Assembly: GCA_045603125.1 (NCBI GenBank) | Contig: JAZULN010000021.1 | Span: 106 to 64,105, forward strand | Direction of reading: 5' to 3' | Length of the DNA: 64,000 nucleotides | Origin: Clostridia bacterium | Lineage (GTDB): Bacteria > Bacillota > Clostridia > UBA1381 | Shown here: positions 25,700 to 42,410 of the stretch, piece after piece | Position numbering within the stretch: the first letter of the stretch is position 1 | Layout of the letters: every line of letters starts with the position of its first letter | Program-made: the position numbers and the translations under genes | Notes under the pieces: generated by a model | What the model was told of the DNA's origin: nothing | Seen by the model: only the letters and a program-made list of their open reading frames with translations | The model's database searches: none

Positions 25700-25764
25700 C
25701 CATAAAATAATCTTTAAAAATACTGAAATATTCTTTACATATAATAATGAATACCGGTGGGGTT

Positions 25765-25814
25765 ATGATTATTTTAAAATTTTAGTTGAAATTTATCGTG
25801 GATGGTGGTATAAT
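25765..25814 (+). promoter_or_regulatory. Promoter module copy A (50-nt exact repeat)
   Basis: ATGATTATTTTAAAATTTTAGTTGAAATTTATCGTGGATGGTGGTATAAT, containing TTGAAA (25786-25791), 17 nt, and a TGG-extended TATAAT (25809-25814). Identical to 26498-26547. Confidence 0.7.
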
Positions 25815-25842
25815 GAGTTCAATCGTTTTACGATTAAACTCA

Positions 25843-26024
25843 GCGATATAAATTCCTTACGAAATTTGCGATATACCTTGTGGTGCGATATATCCTGACG
25901 GATGCGATATGTGCCTTCGGCACAAGAAAAAAGAATTTATATCATATCGCAATCGAATAAAATGAGGTTATATCGCATTTGAACGGAGTGAAAATATATC
26001 GCACGAACGAAGTGAGTATATCGC
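25843..26024 (+). repeat. Inverted 4+4 array of GCGATAT / ATATCGC with fully self-complementary spacers, in the 5' leader of the four-helix-bundle gene
   Basis: GCGATAT at 25843, 25868, 25885 and 25904. ATATCGC at 25944, 25970, 25996 and 26018. All seven spacers pair from first to last nucleotide. Confidence 0.85.
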
Positions 26025-26039
26025 TGGAAAGAGGTTATT

Positions 26040-26399
26040 ATGAACGATAAAACTATTAAAGAATTAGCAGTTGAATTAACCGTTGAAGTAACTGCGGTCT
26101 GTGATAGTATAAAAGGTAGAGCAGTATTTACAAATCAACTTTTGAGGTCTTGCTCGTCAATAGGTGCGAATTCACACGAAGCAAAATATGCACAGAGTAG
26201 GGCAGATTTTATACATAAACTTGAAATCGCTCTAAAAGAGTGTTTTGAAACAGAATATTGGTTAGAAATTTTATTCAAAGTAAATGCAATAGATAAGACA
26301 ATATATGATACTTTGAATAACAAGTGCGGAACAATTCGCAGAAAGCTGATAGCATCAGTTACAACTACAAAGAAAAATCAGGATAATAATAACATCTAA
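26040..26399 (+). CDS. Four-helix-bundle protein (23S rRNA intervening-sequence protein / Avd-like family)
   Basis: 119 aa. FTNQLLRSCSSIGANSHEA...SRADFIHKLEIALKECFETEYWLEIL matches the hallmark pattern of this family. Confidence 0.8.
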   Translation: MNDKTIKELAVELTVEVTAVCDSIKGRAVFTNQLLRSCSSIGANSHEAKYAQSRADFIHKLEIALKECFETEYWLEILFKVNAIDKTIYDTLNNKCGTIRRKLIASVTTTKKNQDNNNI

Positions 26400-26453
26400 A
26401 TCGTTCACTGATTCCATAATGAACTTGCCAAACACAGGGTCAAGTGTTTTTCG

Positions 26454-26483
26454 TGCATCAACTATCCGTTGGTGCATTTTTTT
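26454..26483 (+). terminator. Rho-independent terminator after the four-helix-bundle gene (module T1)
   Basis: TGCATCAAC-TATCC-GTTGGTGCA followed by T7. Confidence 0.7.
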
Positions 26484-26497
26484 AATTCAAAGAAGTA

Positions 26498-26547
26498 ATG
26501 ATTATTTTAAAATTTTAGTTGAAATTTATCGTGGATGGTGGTATAAT
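26498..26547 (+). promoter_or_regulatory. Promoter module copy B (50-nt exact repeat)
   Basis: Identical to 25765-25814. TTGAAA at 26519-26524 and TATAAT at 26542-26547. Confidence 0.7.
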
Positions 26548-26553
26548 AAGCTT

Positions 26554-26659
26554 GCCAAACACAATTTGATATTTAATTTATTAGTGTATGAACTTTTACC
26601 TAGGTAAAAGCACATACCCTATTTTTCATATGCTAATAAATTATGAAATTGTGTTTGGC
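26554..26659 (+). other. 106-nt extended hairpin in the leader of the 67-aa gene
   Basis: Four paired segments: GCCAAACACAATTT (26554-67) with AAATTGTGTTTGGC (26646-59), 14 bp; AATTTATTAG (26575-84) with CTAATAAATT (26633-42), 10 bp; GTATG with CATAC; and the apical 18-nt perfect palindrome CTTTTACCTAGGTAAAAG (26593-26610). Confidence 0.75.
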
Positions 26660-26681
26660 CACACGGGGAATGTGTTTTTCG

Positions 26682-26708
26682 TGCACAGGCTCTGCTTGTG
26701 CATTTTTT
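26682..26708 (+). terminator. Leader terminator (module T2) 8 nt upstream of the RBS of the 67-aa gene; putative attenuator
   Basis: TGCACAGGC-TCT-GCTTGTGCA followed by T6. Shares its flanks (GTGTTTTTCGTGCA ... TGCATTTTTTAATT) with T1. Confidence 0.65.
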
Positions 26709-26728
26709 AATTTATGGAGGTAAATGCT

Positions 26729-40726: not shown

Positions 40727-40755
40727 TTGACAAAACAAAACTCTTCTGTTATAAT
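40727..40755 (+). promoter_or_regulatory. Perfect-consensus sigma-A promoter of the tRNA operon
   Basis: TTGACA (40727-32), 17 nt, TATAAT (40750-55). Confidence 0.7.
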
Positions 40756-40794: not shown

Positions 40795-40868
40795 GCGGGT
40801 GTAGTTCAATGGTAGAATCCCAGCCTTCCAAGCTGGTCGCGTGGGTTCGATTCCCATCACCCGCTCCA
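40795..40868 (+). tRNA. tRNA-Gly (anticodon TCC)
   Basis: Cloverleaf folded by hand. Anticodon loop CTTCCAA, T-loop GGTTCGATTCC, encoded CCA. Confidence 0.9.
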
Positions 40869-40871
40869 CAC

Positions 40872-40948
<77 letters not shown>

Positions 40949-41034
40949 CATTTATTTTAAGGGTGGACTTGCCACATAAAAAGGATTTGCAATCAAGATG
41001 ACCACTGGCATTAAAATCCACCTTAAATTGATAT

Positions 41035-41112
41035 GGTGGGTATAGTTCAGTTGGTTAGAGCGTCAGATTGTGGTCCTGAATGTCGTGGGTTCAAATCCCA
41101 CTACCCACCCCA
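41035..41112 (+). tRNA. tRNA-His (anticodon GTG) with encoded G-1
   Basis: Extra 5' G opposite C73, anticodon loop TTGTGGT, T-loop GGTTCAAATCC, CCA. Confidence 0.85.
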
Positions 41113-41167
41113 CTTACTTTTTTATGGTTAGCCAAGGCTTAACCGCAAGAAATGCGTACTCTTACAT

Positions 41168-41244
41168 AGGGATATAGCCAAGTCGGTAAGGCACCAGATT
41201 TTGATTCTGGCATTTCGTAGGTTCGAGTCCTGCTATCCCTGCCA
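41168..41244 (+). tRNA. tRNA-Gln (anticodon TTG)
   Basis: Anticodon arm CCAGA-TTTTGAT-TCTGG, T-loop GGTTCGAGTCC, CCA. The exact 5' end could be off by 1-2 nt. Confidence 0.8.
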
Positions 41245-41246
41245 AC

Positions 41247-41322
41247 GGACCATTAGCTCAGTCGGTAGAGCACTTGACTTTTAATCAAGTTGTCCGGAGT
41301 TCGAATCTCCGATGGTTCACCA
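41247..41322 (+). tRNA. tRNA-Lys (anticodon TTT)
   Basis: Anticodon arm CTTGA-CTTTTAA-TCAAG, T-loop AGTTCGAATCT, CCA. Confidence 0.9.
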
Positions 41323-41358
41323 AAAATCGACATTCTTCGACAGAGGAATGTCGATTTT
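41323..41358 (+). terminator. tRNA operon terminator
   Basis: AAAATCGACATTC..GAATGTCGATTTT. Confidence 0.75.
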
Positions 41359-41445
41359 ACTTATTACCTATTCACTCTTCACTATTCCCTAAAATAAATG
41401 TCGATTTTTGGAAAGTAATAAGTAATAGTGAATAAGGAAGAGGTT
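41359..41445. repeat. Opposed blocks of tandem degenerate YTATTCAC-type 7-8-mers
   Basis: Pyrimidine-strand block ACTTATTAC-CTATTCAC-TCTTCAC-TATTCCC (41359-89). Purine-strand block GTAATAA-GTAATA-GTGAATAA-GGAAGAGG (41410-45). The 12-nt direct repeat AATGTCGATTTT (41347-58 and 41397-408) brackets the first block. Confidence 0.6.
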
Positions 41446-41501
41446 AATGTTGCTTTGCTTTCGCAAAGCTTATTTTTATATGACATCTAAATCGTTCGGC
41501 T

Positions 41502-41579
41502 ATTTCACAGAAAGCGTAAGCTTTCTATTTCACAATTTACGAAGTAAATTATTTCATATCAGCGAAGTTGATATTTCAT
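41502..41579 (+). repeat. Array of 4 x ATTTCAY separated by three flush hairpins with C-GNA-G loops
   Basis: ATTTCAC at 41502 and 41527; ATTTCAT at 41551 and 41573. Spacers: AGAAAGC-GTAA-GCTTTCT, AATTTAC-GAA-GTAAATT and ATCAGC-GAA-GTTGAT. Confidence 0.8.
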
Positions 41580-41606
41580 TTAAATAATGTCATTAACATC
41601 AATAAA

Positions 41607-41635
41607 ATAACACCCGTTCAGGGTGTTATTTTTTC
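41607..41635. terminator. Bidirectional terminator at the 3' end of the AraC-family gene
   Basis: AACACCC-GTTCA-GGGTGTT flanked by A- and T-runs. Confidence 0.75.
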
Positions 41636-41639
41636 ATCA

Positions 41640-42410
41640 TCAATCCTCATGATACCGCCTCCCATACTCAGACGGTGATACCCCAAAATGGCGTTTAAAA
41701 CTTTTTGAGAAGGTGAATAAATCGGAATATCCGACAGAATTTGCCGCAATAGTTACCGATATGTTATTTTTAGAAATCAGCGATGCGGCAGTATTCATTC
41801 TGTAGTTTAAGAGATATTGTTTGGGTGCCATGCCAATTTTTCTTTTAAAAGTAACGGAAAAATATGTCCTGTCAAGATTTAGATGCCGGGCGATTTTTTC
41901 GATTGTAATATCGTGCATATATTCTGAATGTATGTATTCTAATGCTAAATCGACGTAATCGGTTTTGGGTTGTTCCTCTTTTGAGAGGAGTGCGAATAGT
42001 TCCCATAATTTCCCCGTAAGGTAAGCACTTCTCCCGACGGAGTAGGACTCGCAACCTTTCATTTGCTGGAAGATTTTTTCTGCCTGTGGACATAAAATCA
42101 CATCTTTTAAATGATTTAAAATTGGACTTTCAGATGTAAAACCAATCCAGATATAGTTCCACGGAAGTTTATCGTCGGCACAGTAATAGACTTCTTCAAA
42201 TGGTGGAATAACAAACATTTCGCCAGGTTTTACATTATATGTTTTACCCTTGATTTTAAAAAGCCCGCAACCTGATACAACAAAATGAATAAGCCAGTGC
42301 GTGCGGATAGCAGGCCCAAAATAGTGGGATTTTGGGCAGTTTTGGTAGCCAAAACTGATGGGATTTAAGTCGCGATAGTGCTCATCTGTAACAATTACAT
42401 GATGTTTCAT
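41640..42410 (-). CDS. AraC-family transcriptional regulator (cupin sensor plus HTH), likely regulator of melA-galT
   Basis: C-terminal AraC HTH (LNLDRTYFSVTFKRKIGMAPKQYL ... SVGYSDLFTFSKSFKRHFGVSPSEY). Divergent from melA. Start is uncertain among 42410, 42431 and 42458. Confidence 0.8.
   Translation of the reverse strand: MKHHVIVTDEHYRDLNPISFGYQNCPKSHYFGPAIRTHWLIHFVVSGCGLFKIKGKTYNVKPGEMFVIPPFEEVYYCADDKLPWNYIWIGFTSESPILNHLKDVILCPQAEKIFQQMKGCESYSVGRSAYLTGKLWELFALLSKEEQPKTDYVDLALEYIHSEYMHDITIEKIARHLNLDRTYFSVTFKRKIGMAPKQYLLNYRMNTAASLISKNNISVTIAANSVGYSDLFTFSKSFKRHFGVSPSEYGRRYHED

Follow-up and report, generated by a model that had tools for sequence, protein, structure and literature searches.

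In a 64,000-nt stretch of contig JAZULN010000021.1 (assembly GCA_045603125.1, Clostridia bacterium), hereafter the window, an array of four heptamers and three hairpins lies at positions 41502–41579, between a tRNA operon and a convergent araC gene. The explanation that we consider best overall is that the array is a decayed arm of an element of the type catalogued as Gut-1 RNA (Rfam RF01706) left at a tRNA flank, and that the family to which it belongs provides a platform for an oligomeric protein, the best candidate being the product of genes of the family PF05635 ('S23p', 23S rRNA intervening-sequence protein); we give this explanation a probability of about 0.6. The array itself is an ordinary, partly decayed copy, and its value lies in the leads that it opens on the family, namely a reversal of the folding strand, two arms, a preference for tRNA flanks and a partnership with PF05635. 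Gut-1, a 'candidate sRNA from uncultured gut bacteria' (sRNA, small RNA) since 2010, corresponds to one half of an element with mirror symmetry. Three results on the family are, as far as we found, new: the ATWTCRY folding strand, the position of complete elements directly upstream of PF05635 genes, and a heptamer type that tracks the PF05635 clade.

Assignment of the array to Gut-1

On the forward strand the heptamers ATTTCAC (41502–41508), ATTTCAC (41527–41533), ATTTCAT (41551–41557) and ATTTCAT (41573–41579) start 25, 24 and 22 nt apart, and the gaps between them are filled exactly by three flush hairpins, AGAAAGC-GTAA-GCTTTCT (41509–41526), AATTTAC-GAA-GTAAATT (41534–41550) and ATCAGC-GAA-GTTGAT (41558–41572), the last with a single G.T pair that is an A.C mismatch on the reverse strand. 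A previous sequence-only reading of this stretch had described the same grammar of constant heptamers and flush, C:G-closed GNA/GNRA-type hairpins, and all three hairpins were recovered in the spacers; its spacings of 25 and 24 nt stand, and the last is 22 nt where 23 had been given. It had also noticed that no complementary RTGAAAT arm was nearby, and our search of the forward strand agrees in finding no such partner arm near the array. The ATTTCAY heptamer is not enriched across the window (37 matches versus 39.5 expected). The pattern of a heptamer, a flush hairpin and the same heptamer, repeated at least twice, appeared in 0 of 100 first-order shuffles of the window and, in the real window, forms the three-unit array described here; its grammar is far from chance. 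The z-scores of the array fold were −2.4 (forward) and −3.0 (reverse) with RNA parameters and −3.4 on both strands with DNA parameters. No promoter-like site adjoining the array was found on either strand. The arm is followed by a conserved outer flank, TTAAATAATGTCATTAA (41580–41596).

Searched against Rfam at permissive settings, the spacer had a single strong match, to RF01706, which covers 41497–41581 on the reverse strand, as the reverse complement of the ATTTCAY arm, over model positions 1–77 of 77 (48.6 bits, E 6e-9 to 9e-9). The default scan at the gathering score missed the array, and one non-standard pair (A.C) flagged by cmscan in hairpin 1 is taken to be the cause of the sub-threshold score: with hairpin 1 perfectly paired, the 94%-identical copy in the metagenome contig L349 (positions 278–362) scores 50.1 bits, and the partner arm of that copy 74.5 bits. 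The gathering score is also passed by L043, L346, L347, L321, L262–L264, L108 and L159. That score is an annotation cut-off rather than a biological feature, and membership is based on homology. The consensus of the Gut-1 model, four (G)UGAAAU heptamers and three hairpins, is the reverse complement of the pattern in the sequence-only reading. Among nine homologues, both partners have changed and pairing has been kept at 6 of the 7 pairs of hairpin 3; the covariation score was reached by 0 of 500 shuffles. The array has the four (R)YGAWAU heptamers of Gut-1 and, between them, three hairpins of variable sequence in which pairing is kept. Very probably it is an arm of a Gut-1-type element, and as a further copy of an orphan motif already catalogued it does not represent a new kind of element.

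Gut-1 was described from 43 representatives, all from human gut metagenomes, and was judged 'RNA: yes, not cis-regulatory' with no function assigned (Weinberg et al. 2010, PMC2864571); both that study and Rfam class it as 'Gene; sRNA' and report covariation. In the published alignment many seeds run on into a second, inverted arm (AUAUCAC ×4), and the seeds come after a stop codon or after tRNA-Arg and a terminator. A full-text literature search found no later work on Gut-1. The array resembles the published motif in its four (R)UGAWAU heptamers between three short hairpins, in its origin from gut Clostridia and in having no known function. The published motif represents one arm only, whereas the element is usually two-armed; it was modelled on the reverse complement of the strand favoured by hairpin loops and wobble pairs; and its range, in 2010 human gut metagenomes, now takes in Oscillospiraceae, Acutalibacteraceae, Faecousia and others, animal guts and contigs classed as viral.

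Several other repeat systems were examined and rejected. The short open reading frame (ORF) at 41447–41587 is not a peptide repeat, since the heptamers occupy three different frames. Clustered regularly interspaced short palindromic repeats (CRISPR) and the repeats of type III antitoxin RNAs measure at least 24 nt, are conserved over their full length and have a cas or toxin gene nearby, whereas the constant part of the array units is 7 nt long, the rest varies, and the array lies between tRNA genes and araC. In an integron attC site the hairpin lies between mutually complementary core sites, RYYYAAC and GTTRRRY; the array has no such sites, and the heptamers around each of its hairpins are direct, not inverted, repeats. 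A cre/CcpA site and iterons were set aside on anatomy.

Closest relatives and truncation of the window copy

A metagenome scan with the middle hairpin of the array and its heptamer as query returned eight contigs. Scans of viral contigs with generic triple heptamers yielded at least 120 matches each, about 97% of them chance or coding repeats; among the viral-contig matches listed, L043, L108, L133, L159 and L218 were true arrays after a hairpin filter, and lineage-specific exact words were used thereafter. With homologous arrays in many metagenome-assembled genomes (MAGs) of gut Clostridia, in metagenomes and in phage contigs, the possibility raised in the sequence-only reading that the pattern occurs nowhere else is disposed of.

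Positions 41502–41584 of the window are 94% identical to L349 (283–365), 91% to L352, 87% to L346 and 82% to L043, for which BLAST similarity spans 41502–41596. The flanks of the window arm and of its near-identical relatives are unrelated, i.e. the same arm stands in unrelated surroundings. Two arms are present in 8 of 8 metagenome relatives and in L043. Read on the tRNA-sense strand, these relatives show a terminator, an ACGAAAT or GTGAAAT arm, a centre (GTGGATTTATTTC) and an ATTTCAC arm, and both arms match Gut-1, on opposite strands. The similarity of the window to the two-armed relatives ends exactly at 41501/41502, at the inner heptamer, which therefore suggests that the window copy lost the centre and the tRNA-proximal arm. 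The window arm is joined directly to a junction motif, ATCTAAATCGTTCGGCT (41484–41500). In L354 this motif stands before a whole element, with an RTGAAAT arm, a centre and an ATTTCAY arm, and it is with the S23p-proximal arm of L354 that the window arm (41502–41579) aligns.

Since it has one arm in place of two mirror-image arms around a centre, and since the similarity ends at 41502, the window copy is filed as a truncated derivative, and it is probably a relic of a two-armed element. The sequence-only reading had suggested the single arm as the functional unit; this does not fit the closest relatives (87–94% identical), all of them two-armed, or the abrupt end of similarity, and may apply elsewhere in the family, as single arms exist between phage genes. 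The window copy probably has no essential local role. A local function of the surviving arm is unlikely, if not to be dismissed, because solo arms persist in phage operons. The exact AraC product of the window is not on record. At L003, the closest AraC locus (90% identity), the spacer is rearranged and contains a 3' fragment of tRNA-Lys but not the array, and L001, where AraC is 80% identical, differs in synteny; the array is thus not conserved at these two AraC loci, and they offer no orthologous copy for comparison.

Architecture and distribution of the family

The published Gut-1 seeds share a conserved centre, and a genome collection scanned for a 19-mer of it returned 103 stretches, nearly all from MAGs of gut Clostridia. 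The carriers include Oscillospiraceae, Acutalibacteraceae, Ruminococcaceae and Faecousia, from human, ruminant, deer and rabbit hosts; the 19-mer is also present in the cultured Faecousia intestinalis CLA-AA-H192, and several genomes have 6–8 or more such stretches. The Gut-1-type element is a repeat scattered in many copies among gut Clostridia (Oscillospirales and their relatives), and occurs on some contigs classed as viral.

A complete element consists of a tRNA or other gene, a terminator, an arm of 3–5 RYGAWAT heptamers with hairpins, a centre and a mirror ATWTCRY arm. In the GTGATAT lineage, the full element is polar and measures about 190 nt. It starts with a long variable terminator-like hairpin, GTT-N-TATTCGCC...GGCGA and GTGATAT-hairpin units, and continues with TGCC-TGC-GGCA, GGCGAATA-N'-AA and three to four ATATCAC-hairpin units. 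A pairing of GTT-N-TATTCGCC with GGCGAATA-N'-AA, named P1, covaries at N/N' in 19 of 19 elements (T:A in 7, A:T in 7, C:G in 5), a pattern that could also come from inverted duplication. Folds of whole elements (RNAalifold and minimum free energy) gave inconsistent long-range pairings, among which only P1 covaries.

The elements prefer sites behind terminators and tRNA genes. The tRNA beside the proximal arm is Trp in L346 and Thr-Tyr in L347 and L351, and a tRNA-Arg fragment lies there in L043. A tRNA gene within 450 nt upstream has the same orientation in 8 of 104 elements and the opposite one in none. Upstream genes are co-oriented in 35 cases versus 18, a crude count in which 38 elements lie inside spurious long ORFs of GC-rich MAGs. 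The window copy likewise stands downstream of a tRNA and its terminator with the distal ATWTCRY arm on the tRNA-sense strand, and L346, L347, L351, L355–L357, L263 and L331 have this same polarity. Solo arms were seen between co-directional genes on the viral-classed contigs L108, L159 and L133, with RYGAWAT on the sense strand.

The family recalls the repetitive extragenic palindromic (REP) sequences of Proteobacteria and their composite forms, the bacterial interspersed mosaic elements (BIMEs) and REPINs, in which a short extragenic oligonucleotide and a hairpin occur in multiple copies behind genes, often inverted and with a strand-specific fold. The differences led us to reject membership. 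REP hairpins are conserved in sequence within a genome, whereas Gut-1-type elements conserve only the heptamer and the C..G-closed loop type, their stems differing between units and copies; their units are tandem direct repeats within an arm, unlike REP; and REPs are tied to RAYT (Y1 transposase), whereas no Y1 transposase was found among 104 element-flanking ORFs.

The strand on which the hairpins fold

We pooled 90 arms with 151 distinct hairpins and read each in the RYGAWAT orientation. The stems contained 856 Watson-Crick, 15 A.C and 3 G.T pairs (binomial p = 0.0075); the wobble count on the 19-mer lineage alone was too small to decide, and became significant only with the pooling of the 151 hairpins. 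The loop-closing pair was C..G in 139/151. Triloops were TNC in 48/81 and GNA in 1/81, and tetraloops TNNC in 39/59 and GNNA in none. On the complementary ATWTCRY strand, the A.C pairs become G.T wobbles and the loops become C(GNA)G or C(GNRA)G, in the forms C(GAA)G, C(GCA)G, C(GTA)G, C(GAAA)G, C(GCAA)G and C(GTAA)G. From the wobble asymmetry and the loop types, it therefore appears that selection has acted on the hairpins as folded on the ATWTCRY strand, the reverse complement of the Rfam model and the very strand on which the sequence-only reading had described the array. If every arm folds in this way, opposite strands would therefore fold in the two arms of one element. Generic RNA and DNA folding energies did not distinguish between the strands. 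As to the strand of RNA function, the loop types and the G.T/A.C asymmetry favour ATWTCRY, and the orientation of neighbouring genes favours the modelled RYGAWAU.

The loops of the ATWTCRY strand are of the same types as those of the d(C-GNA-G)/GNRA mini-hairpins; d(GCGAAGC) and the C(GNA)G triloops are reportedly, from the work of Hirao and Yoshizawa, the classic extra-stable DNA mini-hairpins. These are a structural motif and not a genetic system, and their presence is compatible with RNA as well as with single-stranded DNA.

Association with PF05635 genes

The window holds a complete two-armed relative of the array at 25818–26039, which consists on the forward strand of a long hairpin, GCGATAT ×4, a central GTGCC-TTC-GGCAC hairpin and ATATCGC ×4 (hence four GCGATAT on each strand), and whose left arm is a weak match to the Gut-1 model (22.5 bits, E 0.057). 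It ends at the ribosome-binding site of the following gene, 26040–26399 on the same strand, the product of which belongs to PF05635 (80.7 bits, E 1e-22) and matches the Protein Data Bank entry 2RLD (E 1e-23). A promoter at 25786–25815 was read by eye from the sequence. The kinship between the array and this element, proposed in the sequence-only reading, is borne out by the shared covariance model and by their common membership of the class that accompanies PF05635.

A search of the 104 element-flanking ORFs against Pfam assigned 10 to PF05635 (23S_rRNA_IVP), whose members are four-helix bundles, and every other family had at most two. A local search with the PF05635 protein of the window identified 15 PF05635 ORFs in the loci of the genome scan and the window; about 12–13 of them, including 26040–26399, have a two-armed element directly upstream on the same strand, and in L332 a divergent PF05635 gene comes with a GTGAAGY/RCTTCAC array after 5S rRNA and a tRNA. 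An independent set of five PF05635 loci (L354–L358) was fetched from viral contigs by protein similarity. In four of the five, two-armed heptamer arrays precede the PF05635 gene, of type GTGAAAT/ATTTCAC, that of the window array, in L354 and L355, and of type GTGAAGC/CCTTCAC in L356 and L357; the fifth, L358, has in their place a long inverted repeat homologous to window positions 41357–41445. ARAGORN placed tRNA genes just upstream in four of the five (L355–L358) and none within the stretch examined of L354. Thus, a PF05635 gene comes next to a sizeable fraction of element copies, and the polarity is always the same: stable-RNA gene (a tRNA where the upstream sequence is covered), terminator, RYGAWAT arm, centre, ATWTCRY arm, S23p. 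The clades of PF05635 match the heptamer types GTGATAT, GTGAAAT, GTGAAGS and GCGATAT. We rejected the idea that the arms are terminal inverted repeats around the S23p ORF, since both lie upstream and another gene comes right after S23p at most loci.

S23p ORFs are known from intervening sequences of 23S rRNA, for example in Coxiella and Leptospira, which are regarded as selfish and horizontally moving and whose terminal inverted repeats are cut by RNase III (PMC4990558). As in those, a PF05635 gene lies here in or beside a stable-RNA operon together with an inverted-repeat structure (compare L332). The intervening sequences are located within helix 45 of 23S rRNA and enclose the ORF in one terminal stem of 28 bp, unlike the Gut-1-type elements, which have both arms upstream of the ORF, are built of heptamer-hairpin units and stand behind tRNA terminators; the array at 41.5 kb differs further in having no ORF at all. 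The nearest solved structure, 2RLD, is an uncharacterised protein with five chains. The same family includes Avd of the diversity-generating retroelements, a pentameric, basic four-helix-bundle barrel that works with structured RNA. Unlike in Avd systems, there is no reverse transcriptase among the top Pfam families of the flanking ORFs, and no template/variable repeat was recognised beside these genes. To our knowledge, PF05635 members outside diversity-generating retroelements have no assigned function.

Proposed mechanism and alternative explanations

We propose that each arm would display about four identical single-stranded heptamers between stable mini-hairpins on the ATWTCRY strand, and that the arms would act in cis as a nucleic-acid platform, of RNA or single-stranded DNA, for an oligomeric protein. 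The candidate binder would be the product of the adjacent PF05635 gene, clade and heptamer type changing in step, and the platform may serve the control or the propagation of the S23p cassette; the window copy would be what decay has left of an element at a favoured landing site, downstream of a tRNA operon. That the PF05635 protein is the partner of the arrays is put forward tentatively. Somewhat more doubtful is a wider form of the idea, in which Gut-1 arrays are the cognate ligand or cis-site of Avd-like PF05635 oligomers outside the retroelements and form with them selfish cassettes, previously unrecognised, that lodge in the flank 3' of tRNA and rRNA genes. Such cassettes would be a clostridial counterpart of the S23p-bearing 23S rRNA intervening sequences, each arm would offer about 4–5 heptamers to a pentameric barrel, and the 41.5 kb array would be a decayed footprint. 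The family-level leads make two old puzzles testable: binding of the array by the PF05635 protein would provide the first ligand for that family and a mechanism for the widespread cassettes behind stable-RNA genes.

A number of observations weigh against this explanation. The array scores 1.4 bits below the RF01706 gathering score (50 bits), in which, as in its missing partner arm, it departs from published Gut-1. Most element copies, that of the window included, have no adjoining PF05635 gene. Several loci have a promoter-like site, read from the sequences, between the element and the S23p gene, in which case the arm may lie outside the S23p mRNA, and the congruence between PF05635 and heptamer could reflect co-inheritance as a unit. 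Solo arms in phages have RYGAWAT on the sense strand and hence the preferred folding strand antisense, which is awkward for a simple RNA model. Finally, wobble pairs are rare (about 2%), a small share for a functional RNA, so that explanations at the level of DNA stay viable; given these rare wobbles and the GNA triloops, single-stranded DNA stays a candidate beside RNA.

The main rival is a mobile-element end acting purely at the level of DNA. The array would then belong to a mobile DNA element, as its terminal array or as a non-autonomous copy of it, with arms that serve as recognition arrays for insertion machinery at the terminator 3' flanks of stable-RNA genes and hairpins that act in single-stranded or extruded DNA, with no RNA function. 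Much of what we observed would suit it: near-identical arms occur in multiple copies in unrelated flanks, their presence differs between close relatives, the mirror-symmetric arms each prefer their own ATWTCRY strand, the stems are almost wholly Watson-Crick, and units are amplified in tandem. The C(GNA)G triloops are said to form extra-stable DNA mini-hairpins, a 56-nt direct repeat flanks the S23p module of the window, the terminator half is duplicated in a locus-specific manner in the neighbouring element type, and S23p intervening sequences are themselves regarded as selfish (PMC4990558). This rival is nonetheless unlikely in our estimate, as no transposase, integrase or HUH gene is enriched among the element-flanking ORFs, clean target-site duplications of heptamer elements were not demonstrated, and the stems differ between copies, unlike those of an ordinary miniature inverted-repeat transposable element or REP. 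A related proposal with double-stranded DNA, in which the heptamers would be phased sites (arm-type sites of an integrase at a tRNA, or repressor operators) and the palindromes incidental, is very improbable. It would account for a spacing of 22–25 bp, close to two helical turns, for the nearby tRNA genes, which are common integration sites, and for the integrase and tRNA-Arg fragment beside the element of L043, which is flanked by an XRE-family gene; it does not predict that the spacers are palindromic in 151 of 151 cases scored, with compensatory change and strongly biased loops. Moreover, an integrase is absent from most loci, and the L043 element would lie on the host side of the tRNA fragment.

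Gut-1 may instead be what was published, a free-standing sRNA acting in trans from the RYGAWAT strand, which here is the reverse strand and sense to araC. The 'Gene; sRNA' classification by Rfam and Weinberg et al. (2010), with its covariation, speaks for this, as do the sense orientation of phage solo arms, the co-orientation of upstream genes (35 versus 18) and the RYGAWAT arm that usually faces the incoming gene or tRNA past its terminator. We consider it improbable, since loop types and the G.T/A.C asymmetry indicate selection on the opposite strand, no promoter was found beside the array on either strand, the arm begins at or just past terminators, and the published motif is only half of a mirror-symmetric element. 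More improbable again is a passive 3'-end module, such as the back-up terminator, insulator or barrier to 3'-exonucleases proposed for REP/BIME. Elements do stand directly past gene terminators, whether the genes are convergent or co-directional, and also between genes of phages, and in complete GTGATAT-lineage elements the first heptamer (GTTTTAT or GTTATAT) also provides the U-tract for the long hairpin before it; such a module would nevertheless leave unexplained the strictly conserved heptamers, which make poor U-tracts, the lineage-specific heptamers that track the protein clade, the mirror symmetry and the association with PF05635.

The tRNA-Lys/araC spacer

The tRNA operon Gly-Arg-His-Gln-Lys (40795–41322, forward strand), the usual type of upstream neighbour for this class of element, lies behind a consensus promoter (40727–40755) and ends in an intrinsic terminator (inverted repeat I3, 41323–41358). 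It is followed on the same strand by a long imperfect inverted repeat (41357–41445), which represents a second type of S23p-associated upstream element and is homologous to that of L358; the RNA fold of 41320–41500 has z = −5.0. A terminator-like hairpin, GCTTTGC-TTTC-GCAAAGC with a T-run (41452–41478, forward strand), aligns weakly to an RTGAAAT-arm unit and may be a remnant of a unit of the lost arm. Beyond the array, a bidirectional terminator hairpin (inverted repeat I6, 41604–41632) is common to the array side and to the convergent araC (41640–42410, reverse strand), so that the array is bounded by the terminators 41323–41358, 41452–41478 and 41604–41632, and it is this bidirectional terminator and araC, not a PF05635 gene, that come directly after the ATWTCRY arm. 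From left to right, the spacer thus reads terminator, L358-type repeat, terminator-like hairpin, junction motif and distal ATTTCAY arm, and is a patchwork of upstream modules of S23p cassettes without an S23p gene. The simplest history is that one or more cassettes landed behind the tRNA operon and then decayed.

Within the long repeat after the tRNA-Lys terminator (41320–41445), ACTTATTACCTATTCACTCTTCACTATTCC pairs imperfectly with GGAAAGTAATAAGTAATAGTGAATAAGG. The loop of the 41357–41445 repeat contains a second copy of the 3' half of the terminator, AATGTCGATTTT (41347–41358 and 41397–41408), which is 100% complementary over 15 nt to the tRNA CCA and the terminator 5' half. In L358 the same inverted repeat stands between tRNA-Tyr and the PF05635 gene, and the loop copy there matches the terminator of L358 itself. 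This copy is either a target duplication or an antiterminator-like alternative pairing. In L003 (1716–2027), the spacer holds only a degenerate tRNA-Lys 3' fragment, and the araC terminator is seemingly split or duplicated (AACACCC...GGGTGTT), which points to rearrangement at this tRNA flank.

Additional observations on related loci

The 25.8 kb module of the window, which comprises the long hairpin, the two-armed GCGATAT element and the gene of PF05635, is flanked by a 56-nt direct repeat (25762–25817 and 26495–26550; 96% identical) that carries a TTGAAA/TATAAT promoter. The leader of the downstream gene is partly duplicated as well (26416–26498 versus 26543–26723), and it looks as if the module had been inserted into the promoter region of a small gene at 26714, or duplicated together with that region.

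Tandem amplification of units was seen in the genome loci L248, L266 and L279, either as GTGATAT with TGCCTGCGGCA in an 18-nt period or as a four-unit block with a period of about 115 nt. L354 (1081–1500) has two complete GTGAAAT-type two-armed elements in tandem before one PF05635 gene, with a TGGACA-17-TATAAT promoter-like site between the last heptamer and that gene. At L043 (541–1777), the 3' half of a tRNA-Arg(ACG) adjoins a tyrosine integrase and further mobile-element genes, and the two-armed element lies on the other side of this fragment, behind the tRNA terminator. Both arrays 1 and 2 of L108 (about 1600–1640 and 2700–2740) are followed by a conserved hairpin motif, AGGTACACGCTAAAGCGTGATTGGA, and another repeat, GGGCTGCGGACGGCCAGTGGCCGC, recurs in this contig (1775 and 4430). 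Stable RNAs other than tRNA also neighbour the elements: the signal recognition particle RNA adjoins the element of L244 (2222–2320), and in L332 (7176–7600) the element of GTGAAGY type and the S23p gene that goes with it are preceded by 5S rRNA and tRNAs.

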